This document shows positions 4,684-49,721 of a DNA stretch of 64,000 nucleotides, piece by piece. A program made the translations under genes and the position numbers. Numbering within the stretch: position 1 is the first letter of the stretch; every line of letters starts with the position of its first letter. Under the pieces are notes generated by a model that worked only from the letters and a program-made list of their open reading frames with translations, made no database searches and was not told where the DNA came from. The DNA is from Candidatus Kapaibacterium sp. (GTDB lineage: Bacteria; Bacteroidota; Ignavibacteria; Kapaibacteriales; UBA2268): positions 3,144,323-3,208,322 of the forward strand of contig OY762428.1 in NCBI GenBank assembly GCA_963665665.1, read 5' to 3'.

Positions 4684-5691
4684 TCAACTCCATTTTGATT
4701 CAAACCACAAATAGGCCTTAGGATTGGTCATTTCAGGTGTAAAAGTAAATTTAAAATGGTGAAATCCCATAAATGTTTCTATCAATCTGATTTTTTGGTT
4801 TCCGCTAACAAGGTTTATTTCATTGTCGTGGTAAACAGGTTCCGGAATCATGGGAATAATCCCTGCAATATTATCAATTAGAAGGTTGCTGCTGATCATT
4901 TTATCGATTAGAATCTCGGTTTTTCTTTTCTGGATAAAATCAAAACTGTTATTGATAAAACATTCCACCCCGATTCTGTCCGATAGATTTCCGCCAACAA
5001 TGCTAAGCTGCAATGAAAATACATCGAAAAATTTATTATATAAAGAAACAAATTGTAACAGATTATCTATTCCGGTTTCGGAATATCCTGACAGGGTTAG
5101 AAAACTTTTAATATTCCCGGGATTAACCGAAGATATTAAAAGCCTGACTGCGTTGTTTTTACGGCCAAGCATTATGCCAATGCAATTCAGATTAGATTCC
5201 GGGGGCATAGCTGATACTATCGTTGATATTTGCTGAATGGTATTGGGATTGATTTCAGAACTTTCTTTTCCCATGGCTTTGCTTATGGCAGTGAAATAGT
5301 CCTTTGTTATATTGAAATTTTCCTGGTTTATACCCCAGAAATATGAAGGGTAAGGCACAAAATCATTCTTTCCGGTATCGTATTCATACCAGGTGAAATC
5401 AATATGATCCTTAAGTTCACTTGAAAAAAGTAAATTTGCTTTCAGATCAGTGTGTTTTGCGATATTATCTGAATGAAGAAGATTAACGGAGTTCCTGCCC
5501 AGCTTTGATAAAGATAATAGAAGGTCAGCCCCCGGAGTGCTAATATTGCATGGGAATTCAAAACCCGATAAAAAATATGCTAATTCGGCAGGTAAGCGGG
5601 AAGATAAATCAAATATTGCTTTTCTGCTTTTTGAAGAAATTGTATTGCAAATCCGCCGGAGAGGCGCTTCTATGTAGTCCGAAAGAACCAT
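4684..5691 (-). CDS. Hypothetical cytoplasmic protein (335 aa, no recognisable motifs), divergently transcribed from the Gly-rich peptide genes
   Basis: Long uninterrupted ORF with no signal peptide; a 155-bp AT-rich divergent intergenic region is shared with 5846..6307. Confidence 0.5.
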   Translation of the reverse strand: MVLSDYIEAPLRRICNTISSKSRKAIFDLSSRLPAELAYFLSGFEFPCNISTPGADLLLSLSKLGRNSVNLLHSDNIAKHTDLKANLLFSSELKDHIDFTWYEYDTGKNDFVPYPSYFWGINQENFNITKDYFTAISKAMGKESSEINPNTIQQISTIVSAMPPESNLNCIGIMLGRKNNAVRLLISSVNPGNIKSFLTLSGYSETGIDNLLQFVSLYNKFFDVFSLQLSIVGGNLSDRIGVECFINNSFDFIQKRKTEILIDKMISSNLLIDNIAGIIPMIPEPVYHDNEINLVSGNQKIRLIETFMGFHHFKFTFTPEMTNPKAYLWFESKWS

Positions 5692-5845
5692 AATTATTCA
5701 TTTCCAAAATTTTTTTTAGCTTAAATTAAAAATTTTCGTGATTTTTTTTACATTTTTCTTTATATTATTAAAAGTTAAACTGAATATAAAATCCGAAAGA
5801 CTATACTTTTGAAATTCCATTTACTAACAATCACGAGAGGATACA

Positions 5846-11357: not shown

Positions 11358-11874
11358 GATAATTATCTTTATTAAAAAAATTAATTTACATTATTCTTTG
11401 CAAACCGGCAAGATTAATTTTGAAGTATAGATTTTGACGGTTATCAATTATATTTTCACATTTTTCTTTTTTGCCAGGGTATGCAGTGCTTGTTTTAAAT
11501 TCCTGATGATATATTAATCCTGTTTCAACATTCAGCCTGCTCCCTTTTTTACCTGACGGCTGAAGAAAAAGAAATTGTCGATCCTTATATTATAAACGGT
11601 TGAAATTTCCAAAGGTTCATAATTTTCAAGTGAAATTATGTAATCGGCTCTTTTAATTGAGGCCCTTAATATTATTCTTTTGCCATTAGGAACGAAATTC
11701 CGAGAGTTTTTTTATGCCGGCATCCAAAGCTTCAAAATAAATTATTGAAGGCATATTTTAACACGCGTACATATATATCCGGCGCATCCCGGGTAAATAT
11801 TCTTCCGGTAAATTTGAACACGGGAGTCAAATAATTTTATAATTTCCGGGCTTCTGAAAAGAAAGATTTCAACT

Positions 11875-12174
11875 TCACGAAATATTGATTCCTTTCATTA
11901 TAAGCTGTTCCTGCAGGTGGTTCTTAAGCACCCTGCCCCGATAGGTTAAGCGTGAGAAGCTGCATTCCCGACCGTTCAGAATAGTGCCGCGCAAAAAGCC
12001 CTGCTCAATAAGCCGGCGGGCGCCTCGGTATATATCCTGATCGCTGTATTTATTCAGTAATTTATTTGTTTCCGATACAGATTCGAGAATAAGATAAAGT
12101 AACTCATCGGAAAATTTTGGTTCCGGTTCCATGTCGTCGAAAAATGGCTGTTCAAATTCAATACTTCCTATCAT
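11875..12174 (-). CDS. Small hypothetical protein (99 aa), translationally coupled to the upstream S24 peptidase gene
   Basis: ATGA start/stop overlap with 12171..12782. Confidence 0.35.
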   Translation of the reverse strand: MIGSIEFEQPFFDDMEPEPKFSDELLYLILESVSETNKLLNKYSDQDIYRGARRLIEQGFLRGTILNGRECSFSRLTYRGRVLKNHLQEQLIMKGINIS

Positions 12175-12782
12175 TGATTTCCTCCCGGTTCAATTCCAAT
12201 AACTTTAGCAAAAATTCTGAAATTCCTGCATTTTTCAATCGGGACGGGCGGGTATTTGCGGTTTTCGGATACAAGATACTTTCCGTTTCGTTCCACGATA
12301 TATTTTTTAATAAACAGCCTGCCGTCCACTTCTGCAATTATTATATCTCCGCTTTTGCACTTCTTTCCCGGTGCTATAATTGCCTTCATGCCTTCGAAAA
12401 TTCCTGCTCCCTGCATTGAATCCCCGTATATCATGCATTCCTTCAGCTCTGAAATATTGATATTTTCAGGTATGCCGGGCATTTCAGTTTCTGAATAAGA
12501 CAGGCGAAAGGGACGCAGCGGGGCATTGAGCCCGAGTATCGTGCCTGTCAGTATGTATTCCGCGTCTTCTTTGGCGTTTTCAAATGCATCCGACCCGCGT
12601 TGCAGGCATTCCCTGCTTAGTATTTCAAGCCTTTCAATATCAGGCCTGCCCGATTCGGCACCGCCGAGCAGGTATTTCCTGCTTAAGCGGTATATATCGG
12701 CATCCGGGGCCATTGCTGCCCAATCCCTGAATTCAGCCTTAGTCATCATTTTTCTTTCTCTGGTTAAGAATGTCGCCTGCAA
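12171..12782 (-). CDS. S24 (LexA/CI-like) serine peptidase domain protein with a ~110-aa unknown N-terminal extension and no HTH
   Basis: C-terminal ECMIYGDSMQGAGI...GDIIIAEVDGRLFIKKY supplies a Ser/Lys dyad in S24 spacing. Confidence 0.6.
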   Translation of the reverse strand: MQATFLTRERKMMTKAEFRDWAAMAPDADIYRLSRKYLLGGAESGRPDIERLEILSRECLQRGSDAFENAKEDAEYILTGTILGLNAPLRPFRLSYSETEMPGIPENINISELKECMIYGDSMQGAGIFEGMKAIIAPGKKCKSGDIIIAEVDGRLFIKKYIVERNGKYLVSENRKYPPVPIEKCRNFRIFAKVIGIEPGGNQ

Positions 12783-13161
12783 CGGCGCTTATCAGTTCCA
12801 GCTTTTCGTCCATACTCATTTTTTTTGTATCCAGGCTGGCACTGCCAATCGGGATAACCTTATCGTTATGAAATACTTCACTTTCTTCAAGGCGTTCTTT
12901 CAGTATTTTGCCGGCACGGTTGGCAGCAAAAATACTTTCCTCGCCCGTAAGTATAAAAACCGGGTTTATACCTTTGCGGTAGAGCTTAACAAGAAGTTCC
13001 GGGGGAACTCCGGAACGCCCGTTTTCGTAATTGCGGATCTTGTCCTGGCTGACATTAAGCAATTGGGCAAACTGCGAAGCCGACAGCTTCACGCCCTCGT
13101 TGAATATGTTTACCCTGATTTCCCGCAGCCTTCTGCCAATTTCTATTCCTATCTTATCCAT
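12739..13161 (-). CDS. XRE-family helix-turn-helix transcriptional regulator (Cro/CI-like)
   Basis: N-terminal LSASQFAQLLNVSQDKIRNYENGRS HTH; immediately upstream of, and overlapping, the S24 peptidase gene. Confidence 0.65.
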   Translation of the reverse strand: MDKIGIEIGRRLREIRVNIFNEGVKLSASQFAQLLNVSQDKIRNYENGRSGVPPELLVKLYRKGINPVFILTGEESIFAANRAGKILKERLEESEVFHNDKVIPIGSASLDTKKMSMDEKLELISAVAGDILNQRKKNDD

Positions 13162-13294
13162 ATTTTATAAACTATTTTTAAAATAAACAAAAATAATTTA
13201 CTTGGAATATAAGCAATATATACATATATTACAAGTAAAAATTACCAAAAATAATTGTATATATTACATTTGTAATAAAATAAGGTAAAAAATC

Positions 13295-13534
13295 ATGCAA
13301 CAATCAAAGCAAAATGCAAGTGCTGCCGACAGGCTGGAGAAGGCCGGGGAAATTCTCGGGAGTGCCCTGAAGGAAGCCGAGAGCAAAAAGCTGATAAGCC
13401 CCACTTTAAGGTCGGACCTTGAGTTTATAATTGGCGATTTTCTGTTTTCATCAAGCGGGAACGATGCTGAAATCAACTTTCTTATGTTAAACAATAATGG
13501 CTGGGAGCCTGACGGTTATGAACAGTGTTTTTGA
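13295..13534 (+). CDS. Small hypothetical protein (79 aa)
   Basis: ORF with a plausible RBS (aaggtaaaaaatcATG); overlaps an antisense 76-aa ORF, so coding status is uncertain. Confidence 0.3.
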   Translation: MQQSKQNASAADRLEKAGEILGSALKEAESKKLISPTLRSDLEFIIGDFLFSSSGNDAEINFLMLNNNGWEPDGYEQCF

Positions 13535-13784
13535 TCAGATACGCGAAGATGAGCTGACTGACGATTTGAAGCTGGTATCAAAAGTTGTAGGAATTGATGC
13601 TGTAAGAAAAATATTGAAAGATTTTGGCGGCCTGAGTTTTTACATCCCAAAGCTAACACGGCTGGATGGTTTCGTGGACAGGTACATGAAGCAAAACAGG
13701 AATAAAACAGCCAAGCAGATAGCTTTGGACCTTGGCGTGTCCGAGCATTACCTGCGCAGTGTCAGGAAAAGGTTTGGTAATTGA
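13497..13784 (+). CDS. Mor-family (phage Mu middle operon regulator-like) transcriptional activator
   Basis: FGGLSFYIPK followed by the C-terminal HTH AKQIALDLGVSEHYLRSVRKR matches the Mor/C family pattern (FGGxxxYIPK...ELAxxYGxSxxxIxRI). Confidence 0.55.
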   Translation: MAGSLTVMNSVFDQIREDELTDDLKLVSKVVGIDAVRKILKDFGGLSFYIPKLTRLDGFVDRYMKQNRNKTAKQIALDLGVSEHYLRSVRKRFGN

Positions 13785-13806
13785 CAATAGAATACAGGAT
13801 AGAAAA

Positions 13807-14133
13807 TTATCTCATTGATATTCCGAGGTAAGCATGAACCATGCATGCCCAGTCGCCAATGATTTTTCTGTCATCAGTCAGTTCTTTTCGCCAGTCGGTA
13901 TTTTGCCCGGCCTGGCTCATGTTTCTTGCAAGGGCATCAATATTTGAAATAAGGGCGTTATGTGCAGCCGTTCTGTAACTGTCTTTTTCTTTTTTATCAT
14001 CAACAGAAAGAAAGGCCCAGTCAGTCCTTATTCTGGCATATTTAACTACAGAATCGAGCAGTTCAGTTTTCAGGTAATCATTATCAGATTTCATAAGGGA
14101 ATTGTAAATATCAACAACTGAATCCAAAAGCAT
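13807..14133 (-). CDS. Hypothetical protein (108 aa)
   Basis: ORF downstream of the UmuD-like genes on the same strand. Confidence 0.4.
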   Translation of the reverse strand: MLLDSVVDIYNSLMKSDNDYLKTELLDSVVKYARIRTDWAFLSVDDKKEKDSYRTAAHNALISNIDALARNMSQAGQNTDWRKELTDDRKIIGDWACMVHAYLGISMR

Positions 14134-14368
14134 GTATTTCTCCTTGACATAAATTGTACATCAGGAAAAAGATAATAATTAACCATTACCATGCAAGTTC
14201 TTTTTAGTTAATAATTTATATTTTTAAATACTGTAATTTTAGTGTTGATATACTTATTGTTCCGGCAAATTGATTTTTAATTGCTGAAAATGGATTAGTA
14301 CTGACGAATTACCTGATAGCCCGGATAGATAAAATAATCGAGCCTGCCCGGGGGAAAACCATAATCAG

Positions 14369-14821
14369 CTAAATGAGTGAATGTACCACGTGGCGTACTT
14401 TGCCCTGTATGGTGAAAGACATTTCCGGGCTTATCTCAATTGGCAGGAAACGGCTGTTTTCCGATTGCAGATAATAAACACCTTTTTTTTCAATCAGCCT
14501 TTTTACTGTCAGCTCACCGTTCAGAGACGATATAACGATATCGCCGGGGCTGGCAGTATTACATTCCTCAACGATGAGTATATCCCCGTCGAATATATTT
14601 ATATCTATCATACTTTCGCCGTTAACCCTTACAAGATAGAAATTATCCTGGTTTCCTGGCAGAAGGTATTTATAAAGGTCGAGGTCGCCGACATTATTTA
14701 CCCCGGGAATTTTTCCGGCGGGGAATGCTGCATCGAGCAGGGGAGCTTCGAAGCGAAACCTCCTTCCTATCGAACCAAATTTATCAGCCGATAATTTTTT
14801 GCTTTTATAAGAAACTTTCAT
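14369..14821 (-). CDS. UmuD-like S24 peptidase (predicted active; Ser in GESM, Lys in TVKRL)
   Basis: LVRVNGESMIDINIFDGDILIVEE...NGELTVKRL is closely similar to UmuD/LexA catalytic-domain motifs. Confidence 0.7.
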   Translation of the reverse strand: MKVSYKSKKLSADKFGSIGRRFRFEAPLLDAAFPAGKIPGVNNVGDLDLYKYLLPGNQDNFYLVRVNGESMIDINIFDGDILIVEECNTASPGDIVISSLNGELTVKRLIEKKGVYYLQSENSRFLPIEISPEMSFTIQGKVRHVVHSLI

Positions 14822-14846
14822 TTGAAAATATGTGTATTCTTGTTCT

Positions 14847-15275
14847 CTAAATGCTGTGAATTACTTTAGTTACAACACCAACCGGTTTCAGGCCGATATT
14901 TTCTTCATTGATTTCCAAAGGCATAACACTGCTGTCCGGAGCTTCCAGGTATGGCCAGTGCCTTCCTTCCCTGTATATTTTGATAGTGAACGATCCATTG
15001 ACAGATACAACCACAATTCTTCCGTCGGCTGCTTCTATTGCTGTATCAACAACAAGTATATCTCCGTCGGATATATCTAAGTTATAACCGTCAATACCAC
15101 TTATCCTTGCAAAAAAAGTAGCCTTCGGATGTTCTATCAGAAGGTCGTTCAAATCAATTTCCTTGTCGATTTTATCATCAACAGGTACAGGTATTCCTGC
15201 TGAAACAGACATGTTAAAGAATGGCATTTTAGCGCCGGAATAAGGCTTGAAGCCAAATACCTCAACGATTTCCAT
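14847..15275 (-). CDS. UmuD-like S24-fold protein with the nucleophilic Ser replaced by Asp (predicted pseudo-peptidase)
   Basis: SVSAGIPVPV (A-G cleavage-site-like), IDLNDLLIEHPKATFF (very UmuD-like), then ARISGIDGYNLDISDGDILVVD. Aligned against GESM of its neighbour the Ser position is Asp; the Lys in FTIKIY is retained. Confidence 0.6.
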   Translation of the reverse strand: MEIVEVFGFKPYSGAKMPFFNMSVSAGIPVPVDDKIDKEIDLNDLLIEHPKATFFARISGIDGYNLDISDGDILVVDTAIEAADGRIVVVSVNGSFTIKIYREGRHWPYLEAPDSSVMPLEINEENIGLKPVGVVTKVIHSI

Positions 15276-15426
15276 TTTATTGTCCCCTTTTGCTGCTAAT
15301 AATACATGCCGCTAATGCGACACATTAAGTATTATAATATAATGGAAAAGGCAGCACTTATGCAAATTTTTTTTTCGGGTAGTAATTTTTTTTTAATAAT
15401 TGTTTCAATTTTTTAGAAATAGAATG

Positions 15427-16926
15427 TTAGTGTGCCCAAATCGGCTGCACGGCAGGATCAATTCCCAGAACGGCCGAACCTATGAAATAGAAAAATGTTG
15501 AAATAATTAATGCACCGGCAAGGTTTAATATCAGCCCTGCGCGTGTCATATCGTGAATTTCCAAATATCCCGAACCGAATACGATAGCATTGGGCGGAGT
15601 AGCTATTGGAAGCATGAAAGCACATGAAGCGGATATTGTGGCAGGTATCATCAATAGCAGAGGGTTAATGCCCATACCTATGCCAACAGATGCAAGTATC
15701 GGCAGCAGAGTCTGGGTTGTTGCCGTATTTGAAGTAAGCTCGGTCAGGAATGTCAGTATCAGGCATGTCAGTATTATTATCAGGAAAACCGGAGCATCAC
15801 TTAGGGCACTGAATTGATTTCCGATAATTCCCGAAAGCCCTGAATGCTGAAATCCTTCAGCAAGGGCAAAGCCGCCCCCGAAAAGCAGGATGATTTCCCA
15901 GGGAACTGAGCGAATCTGTTCCACACCTACGATACCGCTACCTTTATTTGTGCTGTCCGGAAGAATAAATAGCAAAACAGACATAGCAACAGCTATAGTT
16001 CCGTCGTCCACAAGGCCGTTTAACCCGATCAGGTTAGTCCATCCGTAAATGGTAATAGCGCCAATATTAATATTTGTCCGGAAAGTCCAAAGCAAAGCAG
16101 ATAGTACAAAAACAAACATTACTTTTTTCTCATTAACGCTCATAGCCGGAAGAGAAGTAAACGATCTGTCGTTGTTTAAATTAATATCACACAGTTCTTT
16201 CCGATGTAAAAACTTTGTAAGTATAAGCCATATCAGCCCCAGCATAGTAAGGCTTAAGGGCAGCGCAAAAATCAGCCAATGGCCAAAACTGATTTCGGGG
16301 GCTTCCGGAAAAGTGGAATGATATATCTGGTTGAATGCAAGATTGGGAGGCGTTCCGATAAGTGTGGCTATACCTCCGGCAGAAGCGGAATAGGCTATGG
16401 CAAGCATTAGCGGCGTACCAAAGGAACGGGCTTTGGAAGCATTCCCCGCTGCATGTGTTACTGCTATGGCTACCGGAAACATCATAACCGCCGTGGCAGT
16501 GTTTGAAATAAACATCGAAAGAAAAGCTGTTGCGATCATGAATCCGAGAATTACAACTGCCGGACTCTTTCCGGTACGGTTCAATATGAAAAAAGCAATA
16601 CGTTTGTGAAGGCCGGTTTTCTGCATGGCCGAGGCAATTATAAAACCACCGAGGAAAAGTAAAATCACAGAATTGAAGTATTCTGCGGCAGTTTCTTTGC
16701 CCTTCATAATTCCAAGCAATGGGAAAAGAACAGCCGGCATCAGAGATGTTGCACTGAGCGGAAGGGCGTTTGTCATCCACCATGTGGCCATTAATACTCC
16801 AACAGCTGTCATATCAGAAGCTGGCTTGCTATCAGAAACAGGAAATATTATCAAAAGAATGAACAATATTATACCGAGGAAGAACCCTGATCGTGAAATT
16901 TTTCTTGCTTTATTTTTGTTTTCCAT
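15427..16926 (-). CDS. Anion permease of the DASS/SLC13 (ArsB/NhaD superfamily) type
   Basis: ~14 TM; repeated SNTATA..M.PI motifs (FISNTATAVMMFPVA; LTSNTATTQTLLPIL) typical of Na+/dicarboxylate-sulfate symporters. Confidence 0.65.
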   Translation of the reverse strand: MENKNKARKISRSGFFLGIILFILLIIFPVSDSKPASDMTAVGVLMATWWMTNALPLSATSLMPAVLFPLLGIMKGKETAAEYFNSVILLFLGGFIIASAMQKTGLHKRIAFFILNRTGKSPAVVILGFMIATAFLSMFISNTATAVMMFPVAIAVTHAAGNASKARSFGTPLMLAIAYSASAGGIATLIGTPPNLAFNQIYHSTFPEAPEISFGHWLIFALPLSLTMLGLIWLILTKFLHRKELCDINLNNDRSFTSLPAMSVNEKKVMFVFVLSALLWTFRTNINIGAITIYGWTNLIGLNGLVDDGTIAVAMSVLLFILPDSTNKGSGIVGVEQIRSVPWEIILLFGGGFALAEGFQHSGLSGIIGNQFSALSDAPVFLIIILTCLILTFLTELTSNTATTQTLLPILASVGIGMGINPLLLMIPATISASCAFMLPIATPPNAIVFGSGYLEIHDMTRAGLILNLAGALIISTFFYFIGSAVLGIDPAVQPIWAH

Positions 16927-44519: not shown

Positions 44520-46979
44520 ATGAGTGCATCATTTTTCATCTTTGTGTCTCTTACTACTAAATTCAGAAATGATGTATTTTTTAACTCGAAGGGTATAACG
44601 ATGAAGATATTCGAGGCAATATGCTTTTGCTTAATTATGATTTTTGCAGTAACCAACTATTCGGAAGCAACGGAAAGAACAAACTTTGTAAGGGGCAGAA
44701 TTGTAGATGCTGATGTTAAAACGGCTATTGTGGGTGCGACAGTTCAGGTGCTGACAACTGAACCGGCAAGAGGCGGATATACTGATAAAAACGGTGAATT
44801 TAAAATTGACGGCGTACCGCTGGGAAGGCATACTTTAAGAATAACATCCATAGGATACAAACCAAAAATTATTGATAATGTTATTGTAATATCCGGTAAA
44901 GAAACCTACCTGAATGTATATATGGATGAAAGTGTAATACAAACTGAAGATATTAAAGTGGTTGCTAATAAAAACCACTCTGAATCAATTAATGAGATAA
45001 TTACAAATAGTGTTGTAACTTTTGAACCGGAAACTATTAACAGGTTTGCCGGCGCCAGGGGAGATATTAGTAAAATTGCGGCTACAAGTGCCGGCGCTGT
45101 AAGCAGTGCGAACCTGAGAAATGATATTATTATCCGTGGAAACTCTCCGCTCGGAGTGTTGTGGATGGTAGAAGGGGCCGAAATTCCAAATCCGAACCAT
45201 TTTATGGTATCTGCTTCCGGCGGCGGGATCTTTGGTATTATAAATAATAACATGCTTGCATCAAGCGACTTTATGACCGGGGCTTTCCCGGCTGAATACG
45301 GCAACAAAATGGCGGGTGCATTCGATGTGAAGCTGAGAAACGGGAATAACAAAAACTACGAGCACACTTTTCAGTTGGGGCTTAACGGGCTGGAATTCGG
45401 ATCGGAAGGCCCTTTCAGCAGCGACAGCAGGGCATCTTATGTTGCAAATGGGCGATTCGTAACATTGCAGCCTGTTACTGCCATGGGTGTGGATATTGAA
45501 GTGGATGCTGTCCCGGAATACATGGACGGAACTTTTAAAGTAAACCTGCCGACTGATGACATAGGTTCATTGTCTGTCTGGGGGCTGGGCGGATACAGCA
45601 ATGTAAATATGAAGGACAGCGAGGACGAAGATATAAACTGGACTGATTCAACTGTGATTGAAGATACGAAAATGAGATCGAGTATGTATGCCATTGGAAT
45701 GAACCACAAATGTTTTTTTGGCGATAACACGCTCGGCGAATTCATCCTTTCAAATTCTGCCAGTATTATCCGGACAGAAGATGAAAATGTTTACCTGAAT
45801 AAACCCAAAATAAAAGAAGAAAAATTCGAAGGAACCGAGGGAAGATTTCTTGCTAAATATCTTCTTACCCATAAATTCAACAGGAATATTCTAATCAGGG
45901 CGGGGCTTTCATATACCTTACTTTACTATGACCTGGATATGTTTGCCTGGAATGAGGATGAAAATAAATATCGCACTACTCTTGCAGAGAAGAATAACTC
46001 AGGTTTATTCAGAACTTTCATGCACTGGCAGTGGCGTCCAAATGAAATTATCGAACTAAATGCCGGTATGAATTATCAGCAGTTACAACTAAATAATACA
46101 AAATCAATAGAACCCAGGGCCTCAATAAAAATAAATACAAGTGAAACACAAAGCATTTCTTTTGCTTACGGATTACACAGCCAGGTTCACCCCCTGCTAT
46201 ATTATTTCTATCAGTTTGAAAAAGACGGGGAAATGGTCGCAACAAATAAAAATCTTGAAATGAGTAAAGCTCATCACTTTGTTCTGGGTTTCCAGGAATC
46301 TATAAACAGTGATTTTTTTGTAAAAGCTGAAGCTTACTACCAGGATCTGTATGATATACCGGTTTCCAAAACCGAAGGCGATGAATATTATTCTTTTTCT
46401 AATCTCGGAGGTGTGTTCCATTTCGATCCCGAACCGGATCTTGTAAATGACGGTAAAGGCAAAAACTATGGCCTTGATATAACATTGAGCAAAAGAATGA
46501 GTAACGGGTACTATATGATGCTGACCGGCTCACTGTTTGAATCAAAATATACCGACGGGCTTGGCCGCGAACACAGCACGGCTTTTGATCTGGGACATGT
46601 TGTAAACTTCCTGGGTGGTATTGAATATGAACTTGATGACGATAGTAAATATACTCTCTCGGCAGACTTTAAAATGACTCACTCCGGCGGAAGAAGAGCC
46701 ATGCCTGTTGATATAGCAGCATCTATGGCTGAAAAAGACGTTGTTTACGATAATACAAGGCCTTATGAAAATCAGTACGACGATTATTTCGCCCTGGACC
46801 TGAAGATCGGTTTTAATATTAATATGGAATCAGTTACACATAATTTCTTTATTGCCGCTGACAATGTAACCAATCAAAAGAATGTTTTCGAGGAGGAATG
46901 GGACAGCGCGGAAAACAAACTTGACAAGCAGTATCAACTGGGAATTTTCCCCTATCTCGGCTACAGGCTTAATTTTTAG
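44520..46979 (+). CDS. TonB-dependent outer-membrane receptor with an N-terminal CarboxypepD_reg-like domain. The likely start is MKIFEAICF at ~44601.
   Basis: VRGRIVDADVKTAIVGATVQV...GEFKIDGVPLGRHTLRITSIGYKP (carboxypeptidase regulatory fold), a plug-like region, a long beta-barrel, and a terminal aromatic (…YRLNF). Confidence 0.65.
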   Translation: MSASFFIFVSLTTKFRNDVFFNSKGITMKIFEAICFCLIMIFAVTNYSEATERTNFVRGRIVDADVKTAIVGATVQVLTTEPARGGYTDKNGEFKIDGVPLGRHTLRITSIGYKPKIIDNVIVISGKETYLNVYMDESVIQTEDIKVVANKNHSESINEIITNSVVTFEPETINRFAGARGDISKIAATSAGAVSSANLRNDIIIRGNSPLGVLWMVEGAEIPNPNHFMVSASGGGIFGIINNNMLASSDFMTGAFPAEYGNKMAGAFDVKLRNGNNKNYEHTFQLGLNGLEFGSEGPFSSDSRASYVANGRFVTLQPVTAMGVDIEVDAVPEYMDGTFKVNLPTDDIGSLSVWGLGGYSNVNMKDSEDEDINWTDSTVIEDTKMRSSMYAIGMNHKCFFGDNTLGEFILSNSASIIRTEDENVYLNKPKIKEEKFEGTEGRFLAKYLLTHKFNRNILIRAGLSYTLLYYDLDMFAWNEDENKYRTTLAEKNNSGLFRTFMHWQWRPNEIIELNAGMNYQQLQLNNTKSIEPRASIKINTSETQSISFAYGLHSQVHPLLYYFYQFEKDGEMVATNKNLEMSKAHHFVLGFQESINSDFFVKAEAYYQDLYDIPVSKTEGDEYYSFSNLGGVFHFDPEPDLVNDGKGKNYGLDITLSKRMSNGYYMMLTGSLFESKYTDGLGREHSTAFDLGHVVNFLGGIEYELDDDSKYTLSADFKMTHSGGRRAMPVDIAASMAEKDVVYDNTRPYENQYDDYFALDLKIGFNINMESVTHNFFIAADNVTNQKNVFEEEWDSAENKLDKQYQLGIFPYLGYRLNF

Positions 46980-47041: not shown

Positions 47042-47235
47042 GCGAAGTAAAGAGTTCTAAATATTTAAAAAATTGCTTATCGGGATCTCTCGTTCCCCGA
47101 AAAATTTTACTCTTATAATAGCTACCTGCTTTGGCTCGTGGATAAGAACGGAGCGACACAGAGGGATAAGATAACATCGCCTGTTCTGCGCCGGCGAAGG
47201 GGGGGGGGCAGGGTAACAGTTATGACTATGAACTC

Positions 47236-47402: not shown

Positions 47403-49721
47403 CTATTGGATAACTAATTTGAAATCAAAAATTTTATCAGAGGAAGTTACCTTAATAAAATATGCTCCATTTAATAAATCACCCGGTAATTTGTACTGAA
47501 TATCCTGGCGTATGGCTCCGAAAAGAGATAGTTTTTCTTTCTTTATCGTTCTTCCGCTAAGGTCAATCAATTCAATTATTGTCTCACCGGCAAATTCATC
47601 ATTCAAAGTCAAAGTAATCAAAGAGCCGGGATGAGCGGGATTAGGAAAAATATTTGCCTTAATGCCCTGGGTTTCTTCAACTGATGTGATCGGATTATAT
47701 TCTATAGCGCATAAAAAGCCTGCATCATGTTGATATGGAAAATGAGGATCAAAGGCATTGTATATCGGAAAATCATAGCTTTCTGTCATTCCTGATAGAT
47801 ATATTCTTCCTGTACTGTCAATTGCCGATCCTCTCAATTCATTGAACCACCCTCTTCCTGCAAGATATGAACAATATAAAACACTATCCAACTTACTACT
47901 TATTACCATAACAAAGCCTCTGTTTTCACCCAGAAATTGACTATCCGTCGTTGTTAATGCATCATTTGTAACATCTAATTCTCCCCCTTGTCCTGTTCCT
48001 GATACAATATAACAATTATCAGGAGTCCGGTCAAACTGAATCATATCATAAGGGTAGGTTTGTCCGTATGTTGAAATTATCTCATTTCCGCTCAAAATGT
48101 TCTTTTTAATTAAGAACAATACCATACCAGATTCTGTATCCGTAGTTTTATGTGCTCCTGGAGTAGTGGTAATATCTTCTTCCTCTGTCAAGCCAAATAT
48201 TTGAAAATTGTTGTTACCAGAATATAATACATATTGGATTCTAAGTAACTCCTCATATGTTTGGTATAATGTAGTTTTATAGTCTGATAAATCTAAAAGA
48301 CTATAATATGCAGAATCGATTTCTGTTGAATAAACATCAACACCTGATAAACAAAGCGTATCTTCAAAAAGAGTACAAAACATTAACTCGGTTTGTTTTC
48401 CTCTTCCGTAATACGAAGAGAATTTAATTTCAGAACCATTAGCGCCTAAAATTGTTATAAATCCGTCAAATTTCTGTTTCTTTTCTTTTCGTATAGCATT
48501 TTCGGTTGTAAATATATTTGTATTTTCATTAATCGATCCAACATGATAACAATTACCTTTGTCGTCTATTTCAATAAAATCATGGGAAAAATAACCATCT
48601 GCTATTTCCCAAAAAGAACCATTATATAAAGAATCACCTGTATTCGATAGATTTACTGAATAATACATATCATTTCTAATAGAAAAATCAGGATTTCCCA
48701 AATATGCATGATCACAAACAGGCATAGTATCTCTTGAAAAACCATATAACTTATAGGAACCATCATTAAGAAAGGCTATTTTATGTATCATGAATTCCGG
48801 AAAATGACTTAACCACAAAGGATATTTCCCGTCCCTGTCAAAACAGCATACGACTCCTTCGACTTCTCCCCGTGCAATATTATATCTTTTCAATGAATCA
48901 GGGAAATACATTTTATCAAAAATGTACATTCCGAAAACCGGATTATTATCCTGATTAACACAAATTGACAATCCTGATGCATCGGCCCCCCCAAGAAAAG
49001 TTGAAAAAACTGTCGGATCGATTATCAATTCCTCTGTTTCGTCATATTTACCGAGTTTAAATGTCAGGTGCTTGCCGTCGTAAATAACAGGTGAACAATC
49101 TATTGGCTGCAATTGATATTCAGATTTTTGAAAAGCTTTCAGCGCCCCGTGCGTATATTCTACATTACCTGAAACAACTTTGAAGTTGCCATTATCAGAA
49201 TAATCAAGATGCCCCTCGCCTTGGAATTCAATTTTCAAATTACCTGGATTAGCACCGGGAGGAAGGATAATATCATATCTCGGTTTGTGACTATCAATTG
49301 TCAGTTTCAGGCTAAAATCCTGGTAATCAACCGTTATTTCACGATAAGATTTAACCGAAACGGCTTTATTGCTTTTATGATCATAAAAGTAATTATGAAC
49401 AGTCGGTTTCTCACCATTGGTATTCAAATTAATAACTTTATTGCGTTGATTGTCTGATGAAAATAACAACATATAGGCGCAACCGATTATGGTATCATGA
49501 GCATTTGATTCATATTTACCGGGGCTTTTCAGCCCCGGTTTAATATTATAATGATCAAATACAAGCCCGTCCCCGGTTATCCATACATTGATACCATCAG
49601 CAGAAGCTTTGGCCAATATGTTTTCCGGCCACTGCCCGGCGTTCGGAATAATGGATTCTTCGGAATAAACAAATCCGGCGGAAAGGAATAAAATACAAAA
49701 TAAAACTACTGCATTTCTCAT
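47403..49721 (-). CDS. Hypothetical secreted protein with a type-A T9SS C-terminal domain
   Basis: Signal peptide; C-terminal IKANIFPNPAHPGSLITLTLN...GRTIKKE...LLNGAYFIKVTSSDKIFDFKLVIQ. Confidence 0.55.
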   Translation of the reverse strand: MRNAVVLFCILFLSAGFVYSEESIIPNAGQWPENILAKASADGINVWITGDGLVFDHYNIKPGLKSPGKYESNAHDTIIGCAYMLLFSSDNQRNKVINLNTNGEKPTVHNYFYDHKSNKAVSVKSYREITVDYQDFSLKLTIDSHKPRYDIILPPGANPGNLKIEFQGEGHLDYSDNGNFKVVSGNVEYTHGALKAFQKSEYQLQPIDCSPVIYDGKHLTFKLGKYDETEELIIDPTVFSTFLGGADASGLSICVNQDNNPVFGMYIFDKMYFPDSLKRYNIARGEVEGVVCCFDRDGKYPLWLSHFPEFMIHKIAFLNDGSYKLYGFSRDTMPVCDHAYLGNPDFSIRNDMYYSVNLSNTGDSLYNGSFWEIADGYFSHDFIEIDDKGNCYHVGSINENTNIFTTENAIRKEKKQKFDGFITILGANGSEIKFSSYYGRGKQTELMFCTLFEDTLCLSGVDVYSTEIDSAYYSLLDLSDYKTTLYQTYEELLRIQYVLYSGNNNFQIFGLTEEEDITTTPGAHKTTDTESGMVLFLIKKNILSGNEIISTYGQTYPYDMIQFDRTPDNCYIVSGTGQGGELDVTNDALTTTDSQFLGENRGFVMVISSKLDSVLYCSYLAGRGWFNELRGSAIDSTGRIYLSGMTESYDFPIYNAFDPHFPYQHDAGFLCAIEYNPITSVEETQGIKANIFPNPAHPGSLITLTLNDEFAGETIIELIDLSGRTIKKEKLSLFGAIRQDIQYKLPGDLLNGAYFIKVTSSDKIFDFKLVIQ

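Follow-up and report, generated by a model that had tools for sequence, protein, structure and literature searches.

What does a UmuD-like protein do if it lacks the catalytic nucleophile, is encoded directly beside an intact paralogue and has no polymerase gene as its operon partner? The question is raised by two genes in a 64,000-nucleotide (nt) stretch of DNA from Candidatus Kapaibacterium sp. (contig OY762428.1), which is referred to here as the window. Gene A (14847..15275, minus strand) encodes 142 residues and gene B (14369..14821, minus strand) 150 residues; the two lie head to tail, with A upstream, B downstream and a spacer of 25 nt between them. As set out below, A is a UmuD-like pseudo-protease and the proposed substrate subunit, while B, with an intact Ser-Lys dyad, is the proposed protease subunit. 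The answer that we favour, and consider reasonably probable from the sequence comparisons, is that the pair constitutes the subfunctionalised halves of a UmuD, in which B cleaves A in trans.

Both products are recognized by Pfam as members of the family Peptidase_S24 (PF00717), with scores of 85.9 bits for B (E 2e-24) and 59.7 bits for A (E 2.8e-16), each above the gathering cut-off of 23.3 bits. They share 33% identity with each other (BLASTP E 5e-16). The initial annotation had described two S24/UmuD-like paralogues in tandem, and its coordinates and all of the motifs that it quoted were found as described: SVSAGIP, IDLNDLLIEHPKATFF, DGDILVVD, FTIKIY and GIDG in A, and GESM and TVKRL in B. 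The top-scoring curated family for both proteins is UmuD (NCBIfam NF007621 / PRK10276), with 96.5 bits for A and 86.6 bits for B, neither of which reaches the family cut-off of 110 bits. Scores with the HumD model (NCBIfam NF051876; A 57.1 bits, B 20.8 bits) do not reach its cut-off of 120, and those with the LexA model (TIGR00498; A 50.1 bits, B 72.1 bits) are below 110.95, with the C-terminal part of the model alone aligned. Each protein, at about 140–150 residues, consists of an arm and an S24 core, and no helix-turn-helix (HTH) domain was found by Pfam in A or B. The closest sequence to A in the PDB is the UmuD chain 8gmt_B (E 2.5e-21), and the closest to B are UmuD' chains. AlphaFold2 (AF2) gave a model of A with moderate confidence: the mean predicted local distance difference test score (pLDDT) is 66.7, and about 80 in the core. 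The top structural matches of this model are UmuD' and UmuD, with template modelling (TM) scores of 0.75–0.79 normalised to the target. PADLOC models of anti-phage defence gave zero matches for A or B, and a search of PHROGs returned just generic UmuD-like and repressor families. Annotation pipelines label both genes as 'DNA polymerase V' or 'S24 family peptidase', names that hide the pseudo-protease as well as the pairing.

The two proteins differ in their catalytic residues. When A is aligned by MAFFT with E. coli UmuD, Asp62 (codon 15090..15092, minus strand; gtc on the plus strand, GAC in the sense direction) falls on the nucleophile Ser60 of UmuD. The phmmer alignment of A with 8gmt_B sets 'sgidg' opposite 'sgdsm', and BLASTP of A against B likewise places Asp62 in the Ser60 column. 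From TFFA to DGD, two conserved blocks, A aligns without an indel; since the three alignments also agree, no alternative serine can occupy the catalytic position, and this candidate was ruled out. The replacement of Ser by Asp in the upstream paralogue, first proposed from the letters of the window, is thereby confirmed by three independent alignments. Residues 15–135 of the E. coli UmuD sequence used as the ruler are confirmed by the PDB alignment. The partner residue of the dyad is kept in A, with Lys99 (14979..14981, minus strand) aligned with Lys97 of UmuD. In B, both the nucleophile Ser70 in GESMI (14612..14614, minus strand) and the general base Lys107 in TVKRL (14501..14503, minus strand) are present and invariant in 55 of 55 sequences. 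The dyad is thus broken in A and complete in B, so that a pseudo-protease is indeed paired with a catalytically intact partner, as the initial annotation held; to judge by these residues, A is a non-peptidase S24 homologue and B a predicted active peptidase.

A second functional element of UmuD is the Ala/Cys-Gly site in the N-terminal arm, which precedes the nucleophile position by about 35 residues. Both proteins of the window have it: Ala26-Gly27 of A (codons 15195..15200, minus strand) lies at the Cys24-Gly25 cleavage site of UmuD, and Ala35-Gly36 of B (14714..14719, minus strand) is found at the aligned position, where Ala-Gly is kept in a minority of B orthologues.

The pairing of A with B extends well beyond this genome. 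Close homologues of A, with 43–60% identity, come from Kapaibacterium/Ignavibacteria-like metagenome-assembled genomes (MAGs), Kapaibacterium being classed in Bacteroidota by NCBI. In six gene contexts of A homologues, a second S24 gene is located directly 3' in four and an IMS/umuC gene in none, and a context seeded from a B homologue gave the same A-B pair. A contig scan with one genome per GTDB species yielded 67 loci, all of them from Kapaibacterium/Ignavibacteria-like MAGs. With every open reading frame (ORF) classified, A is followed by B on the same strand in 60 of the 71 informative loci; another three are truncated at contig ends and carry no information on this point. The gap between the genes is 0–215 nt in nearly all of these relatives, and usually 0–100 nt. 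A occurs without B at eight loci, and the outgroup loci L069, L071 and L072 are ordinary umuDC operons, with a solo umuD that has Ser and Lys and with umuC directly 3'. The A-B arrangement is a lineage-wide conserved cassette, not peculiar to one genome. Many of the MAG records carrying it (L007, L008, L011, L012 and others) are titled 'uncultured Hyphomicrobiales'; the identity of their A-type proteins to window A (39–54%) is about that of the Kapaibacterium/Ignavibacteria-titled records, and the titles look like mislabels.

To compare the constraints on the two proteins, all A and B sequences were aligned to E. coli UmuD and read in UmuD numbering, with column entropies calculated over 55 non-redundant A-B pairs. 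In A, the cleavage site is Ala-Gly in all 70 A-type sequences, and the arm from 16 to 31 is nearly frozen: entropy is zero at V22, A24 and G25, 0.13 bits at S21 and P27, and 0.6 bits at F18. The catalytic loop (57–64) of the same protein has entropies of 2.4–3.3 bits. Position 60, in 71 distinct sequences, is occupied by Ser (24), Asn (14), Met (9), Asp (7), Glu (6), Ala (3), Phe (3), Gly (2), Lys, Thr and Arg (1 each), so that the Asp of window A is one of at least ten residues accepted there; among the non-redundant pairs, Ser60 is kept in 14 of the 55 A sequences. Position 97 is Lys in 59 and Arg in 12 of the 71.

The pattern in B is complementary. Ser60 is found in 59 of 59 and Lys97 in 57 of 57 sequences covering those columns, and over the 55 sequences the entropy is zero at G58, S60, M61, G92, V96 and K97, and 0.23 bits at E93. 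Positions 21–33 of B are variable (about 2.6–3.9 bits) and contain indels, the two cleavage-site columns having entropies of 3.2 and 2.7 bits. Ala-Gly is present at the aligned site in about 11–12 B orthologues (about 11 of 55), and an AG dipeptide anywhere in the N-terminal region in 16 of 56 B sequences. A separate N-terminal motif, [FY]-E-A-P ... A, is conserved in B, so that the arm is retained, yet not as a substrate.

The loss of the catalytic Ser and the highly variable catalytic loop could suggest that the locus has a single functional umuD-like gene, with a decaying pseudogene or an annotation artefact, A, beside it. The initial annotation had named a frameshifted pseudogene as an outcome that would undo its proposal. 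However, about 70 genomes carry A as an intact, full-length gene, the predicted fold of its product is UmuD'-like, and an alignment of 20 close homologues has 25 invariant columns. For 50 close pairs of Ser-less A genes, the median ratio of non-synonymous to synonymous substitution rates (dN/dS) is 0.034 and the highest 0.072, and this includes the clade in which Ser and Lys are both lost (Met/Arg); B genes have a median of 0.031. A dN/dS of about 0.03 in Ser-less A implies that A is a functional pseudo-protease, and together with the intactness of the gene it refutes the pseudogene and frameshift explanations in practice, leaving them with a very small residual probability.

What the two sets of constraints may represent is suggested by the enzymology of UmuD. 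E. coli UmuD is a homodimer and differs from LexA in that its cleavage, on the RecA filament, is intermolecular. In the cryo-electron microscopy structure of UmuD on RecA filaments, the dimer is asymmetric (PMC9926225): the 'inside' protomer provides the Ser60/Lys97 site and contacts RecA through Y52, residue 54, F94, D91 and E93, while the 'outside' protomer provides the cleavage-site region, with F18, L21, Q23, C24, F26 and P29. Of the residues on the enzyme side, conservation of E93 is confined to B, and positions 52, 54 and 94 are constrained in both proteins, with a hydrophobic residue at 94 in each (Leu in A, Met in B). On the substrate side, A conserves the positions that vary in B, though position 26 less clearly. 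The split of constraint between A and B mirrors the asymmetry of RecA-bound UmuD, which points to B as the enzyme and A as the substrate. Such a separation is known to be workable, as UmuD S60A, which can only serve as substrate, is cleaved efficiently in trans by the active but non-cleavable UmuD-delta18 (PMC5342242). An AlphaFold-based model of DNA polymerase V (Pol V) has just one UmuD' arm inserted into UmuC (PMC12926913). If a single arm is inserted, one arm and one active site per dimer would suffice, and after a duplication the redundant copies would be free to decay.

In the mechanism proposed here, a duplicated umuD divided its two jobs between A and B. A would have kept the arm, the Ala-Gly bond and the fold, with no further need of a working active site; B would have kept the active site and the RecA-facing acidic residue, and mostly lost its own cleavage site. 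The two proteins would be co-transcribed and would probably form an A-B heterodimer, in which B cuts the arm of A at Ala26-Gly27. By analogy, the trigger would be DNA damage, signalled by RecA filaments on single-stranded DNA. Cleavage would yield an A'-B complex with the new N-terminus Gly-Ile-Pro-Val-Pro; its target, more speculatively, could be a Y-family polymerase encoded elsewhere or the replisome. The post-cleavage arm of A is conserved as G-[IV]-P-x-P-V-[ED] and resembles the GFPSP arm of UmuD', which suggests a polymerase-like partner encoded elsewhere.

The initial annotation took UmuD/UmuD' heterodimers as its model, and this appears to be the right frame, with the roles reversed: A had been seen as the non-cleavable partner or inhibitor, whereas it is the site in A that is invariant and the site in B that is mostly lost. 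Developed further, that suggestion would make A an uncleaved pseudo-protease, a stable partner or pseudo-substrate inhibitor that holds the complex with B in the state of uncleaved UmuD. It would accord with the missing nucleophile of A and with the Ala-Gly site that window B still has, and a pseudo-substrate, too, would need a conserved arm fitting the active site of B. Most B orthologues, however, have no cleavage site and so leave A nothing to inhibit, and a binder that is never cut could accept changes at the scissile Ala-Gly, which accepts none. The same pattern moreover occurs in umuC-linked fusion proteins, described next, in which activation by removal of the arm is to be expected. We regard this alternative as unlikely.

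The fusions came from an exhaustive profile search with the A family, which returned 18 two-domain UmuD-UmuD proteins of 220–301 residues (P0069-P0076, P0082, P0084, P0085, P0088, P0105, P0130, P0135, P0188, P0207 and P0214). Their N-terminal domain has a cleavage site in 18 of 18 cases (AG in 14, CG in 2, AS in 1, TG in 1) and intact Ser and Lys in only 4 of 18, the substitutions being Ser to Ala, Leu, Phe, Asn or Asp and Lys to Arg or Gln. The C-terminal domain has Ser and Lys in all 18 and an arm in none. A MAFFT alignment of 17 fusions includes among its invariant columns the residues of a GFPSPA arm and the Ser and Lys of the C-terminal domain. In five fusions, the two domains of the same protein are 57–90% identical, which is above any identity between domains of different proteins; the duplication must have arisen several times, with the same decay afterwards. 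This decay is exemplified by P0076, with Asp for Ser, and by P0214, with Ala for Ser and Arg for Lys. In the three contexts with enough DNA (L075 5001..7038, L076 5001..7068 and L078 5001..7096), all mobile-element-like, umuC (IMS + IMS_C + DUF4113) lies immediately 3' of the fusion gene. P0074 is modelled by AF2 as a compact protein of two barrels (pLDDT 82.8; predicted TM score, pTM, 0.81). The order of the domains, substrate unit before enzyme unit, matches the order of genes A and B, and the fusions appear to give independent support, of the Rosetta-stone type, to the enzyme/substrate split. One member of the fusion cluster, WP_336653530.1 from Leucobacter, is annotated as 'LexA family protein', a label that again hides both the pseudo-protease and the pairing. 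A tblastn search for fused forms on plasmids gave single-domain umuD alone among the 12 best records.

The absence of umuC noted initially was also borne out. No Y-family polymerase was found in the window by tblastn with DinB and UmuC probes, and at least 60 related loci likewise gave no such gene over about 4 kb, the search having covered linked genes. The probes were validated by umuC or dinB matches in five control loci, the umuC positive controls being L069, L071 and L072; with the controls detected, a hidden umuC or dinB in the window was rejected. The umuC operon partner expected of a member of the UmuD family is accordingly missing at the A-B pair. Two dinB-like genes, at L046 5022..5918 and L057 5038..5922 (minus strand), lie just 3' of B in convergent orientation and are 43–44% identical to E. 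coli DinB.

Several observations weigh against cleavage of A by B. Those two dinB-like genes are the sole Y-family polymerases seen near any A-B pair, and the search turned up no partner polymerase. Window B retains Ala-Gly, which makes the split of labour less clean here than in most orthologues, and might itself be cleavable. The A-B heterodimer, the cut at Ala26-Gly27 and the dependence on RecA are all inferred, and in the AF2 models of A and of fusion P0074 the arm is disordered, hence shows no docking. The chief observation that trans-cleavage leaves without explanation, unless the protease is encoded elsewhere, concerns the solo Ser-less A genes. Those of L006, L033, L041 and L045 (Glu60) and of L002/L003 (Gly) keep VSAGIP, and the G-rich leader described below, and no B gene or remnant of one was found within 4–6 kb of them. 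In these genomes the protease, B or another of the S24 type, would have to be encoded at another site; otherwise the conservation of the arm must have a cause unrelated to cleavage.

The solo loci lend some weight to the idea that A is cleaved by a different S24 protease, for instance the LexA/CI-like core at 12171..12782 of the window, and that B is a permanently full-length polymerase manager or checkpoint protein. A module of an HTH protein and this S24 core is present in the window and lies 1.5 kb from A in L045. The tight linkage of A and B in a fixed order in 60 loci speaks against such an arrangement, as does the invariance of the catalytic and RecA-facing residues in B proteins that mostly have no site of their own to cut. 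The module, for its part, adjoins A in only 2 of about 75 loci, and 8 metagenomic relatives of it have neither A nor B nearby. The involvement of another protease is accordingly judged doubtful, and placed below the inhibitor alternative.

The region upstream of A (15276..15426, minus strand) contains the presumed promoter and leader of the A-B operon, a promoter-like sequence of the type TTTG ... TATATT followed by AAAAGGGGACAAT before the ATG. Upstream of A in the relatives, the element GGGGGA occurs on the sense strand in 31 of 52 non-redundant regions, compared with 1 of the 203 control regions, which precede other genes of these loci (Fisher p about 8e-25). In L001-L073 it is located 7–90 nt upstream of A, usually 10–20 nt past a TATATT(G)-type box that can be read as a Bacteroidota-like promoter. 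It often forms the loop or the 3' arm of a short hairpin with a pyrimidine-rich 5' arm and, where it lies beside the ATG, could double as a ribosome-binding site. The leader in the window has, at 15276..15300, a weak, G4 version of the element (AAAAGGGGACAAT; G run 15284..15287). A search of 11500..15600 against Rfam gave nothing at E up to 1, scans of 13700..15500 with promoter and terminator consensus sequences gave no more than chance, and a comparison of the 52 regions with the 203 controls showed no enriched dyad that could be a LexA-type palindromic operator upstream of A. The k-mers common to the promoters of A and of the HTH gene are not convincing.

An operon-specific conserved leader, the lack of a linked umuC and the lack of canonical LexA in Bacteroidota (PMC8565304) would all suit a transcriptional regulator of the damage response, derived from UmuD like UmuDAb of Acinetobacter, in place of a polymerase accessory. 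Neither A nor B has a DNA-binding domain, however, no palindromic operator is enriched upstream, and the arm exposed at the new N-terminus, G-[IV]-P-x-P, is similar to the one inserted into UmuC (GFPSP). A regulatory role is improbable on this evidence. In our estimate, the competing explanations rank in likelihood from the uncleaved inhibitor through the other S24 protease and the UmuDAb-like regulator to the pseudogene.

A more speculative version of the enzyme/substrate pair, to which we would give only a minor chance, is that A-B forms a self-contained, proteolytic RecA-sensing switch uncoupled from Pol V. The A'-B complex would then act on the replisome, on DinB or on a checkpoint, and expression would be controlled by the GGGGGA hairpin and not by a LexA-type operator, in a lineage that may be without canonical LexA. 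If so, A'-B would be the built-in equivalent of the UmuD'-UmuD heterodimer of E. coli.

Comparison with known systems places the pair close to, but outside, the described UmuD proteins. With E. coli UmuD/UmuD' (8GMT, 1AY9, 1UMU) it shares the S24 fold, the arm with an Ala/Cys-Gly site about 35 residues before the Ser position and, in B, the Ser-Lys dyad; UmuD chains are the closest sequence matches of A and B and the fold matches. The dimeric state and the asymmetric intermolecular cleavage on RecA filaments would apply to A-B by analogy. Unlike E. coli UmuD, which is one gene and a homodimer, the pair consists of two specialised paralogues, A without the nucleophile and B usually without the cleavage site, with no adjacent umuC and with scores below the family cut-off. 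The nearest functional parallel is the engineered heterodimer of S60A with an active non-cleavable variant (McDonald et al. 1998, as cited in PMC9926225), in which, as that citation presents it, one protomer is only cut and the other only cuts. This is the logic proposed for A-B, with the difference that the engineered proteins are laboratory mutants of a single gene and A-B is a natural, two-gene, lineage-conserved pair. The fusions (P0074, P0076, WP_336653530.1) have the same polarity and the same complementary decay, with Ser to Asp again in P0076. They differ from A-B in being single polypeptides, in having an armless C-terminal domain where B has its FEAP-containing arm, and in their linkage to umuC.

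HumD of phage P1 is not known to carry the arm at all. Like A, it is a UmuD relative that is independent of its own self-cleavage, being a UmuD' homologue made in the pre-processed form, and A weakly matches the HumD model, far below the cut-off (scores above); unlike HumD, A keeps the arm and an invariant cleavage site. UmuDAb is a DNA-binding repressor that cleaves itself. In A-B, both proteins are without a DNA-binding domain and the enzyme and substrate functions would be split over two proteins. What the pair has in common with UmuDAb, to the extent covered by the abstract of PMC11332147, is descent from umuD without pairing with umuC; the role of UmuDAb in the damage response is described there as changed. 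As classified from these profiles and residues, the pair is not HumD, LexA, UmuDAb or a known defence system, and it falls outside bona fide UmuD.

No description of tandem asymmetric UmuD paralogues, of fused or pseudo-protease UmuD, or of umuD in Ignavibacteria was found in the literature searched, which was thin on subscription journals, and an earlier mention is possible. What is proposed as new here is a naturally subfunctionalised enzyme/substrate UmuD heterodimer. The functions of cutting and of being cut appear to have been separated repeatedly, into two genes in this lineage and into fused domains beside umuC elsewhere, which would lend comparative support both to intermolecular, asymmetric cleavage and to the view that just a single arm of each UmuD dimer matters. 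With A as substrate only and B as enzyme only, RecA-stimulated S24 cleavage could be dissected without engineered mutants. The pair also raises a testable question, namely the role of a UmuD-type switch in bacteria without a linked umuC.

The genes flanking the cassette differ among genomes. Recurrence is limited to two neighbours, both upstream and divergent: RNase HI in 19 loci and an AmiA-like gene in 12. This is probably ancestral synteny of the lineage, and the gene neighbourhood was set aside as a functional clue for this reason. The RNase HI gene, often accompanied by the AmiA-like one, directly precedes the pair, for example at L005 1218..1730, L070 2930..3652 and L080 2672..3376; the window does not have this arrangement. 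One or two small ORFs, of about 145 and 123 residues, lie 3' of B on the same strand in L010, L013, L016, L017, L018 and L021 (about 4920..5720), and one of 140 residues without a Pfam match in L004 (6925..7347); such ORFs may extend the operon. The 108-residue ORF 3' of B in the window (13807..14133) is unrelated and has no homologue among the related loci.

Further downstream, the window contains the three-gene module mentioned above (12171..13784), made up of an XRE-type HTH gene (12739..13161, minus strand), an S24-core ORF that overlaps it in another frame (12171..12782, minus strand) and a divergent Mor-like gene (13497..13784, plus strand). The module occurs also in L045 (5897..7165) and in L082-L089, and lies near umuD-like genes just in the window and in L045. 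To judge from its domains, it looks like a LexA/CI-type repressor split in two. The HTH protein ends 4–17 residues past a LexA-like [AV][AV]AG motif, the A-G of which is invariant in 10 homologues, with the Gly lost in L089. In most copies, about 90–115 additional N-terminal residues precede the S24 core. The Ser and Lys of the core are intact in the window, L045, L082, L083, L087/L088 and L089, and L084-L086 have Glu or Asp in place of the Ser. The Mor-like gene is absent just where the contig ends. Elsewhere in the window, a run of ten G on the plus strand (47199..47208) lies between the convergent ORFs 44520..46979 (plus strand) and 47403..49721 (minus strand).

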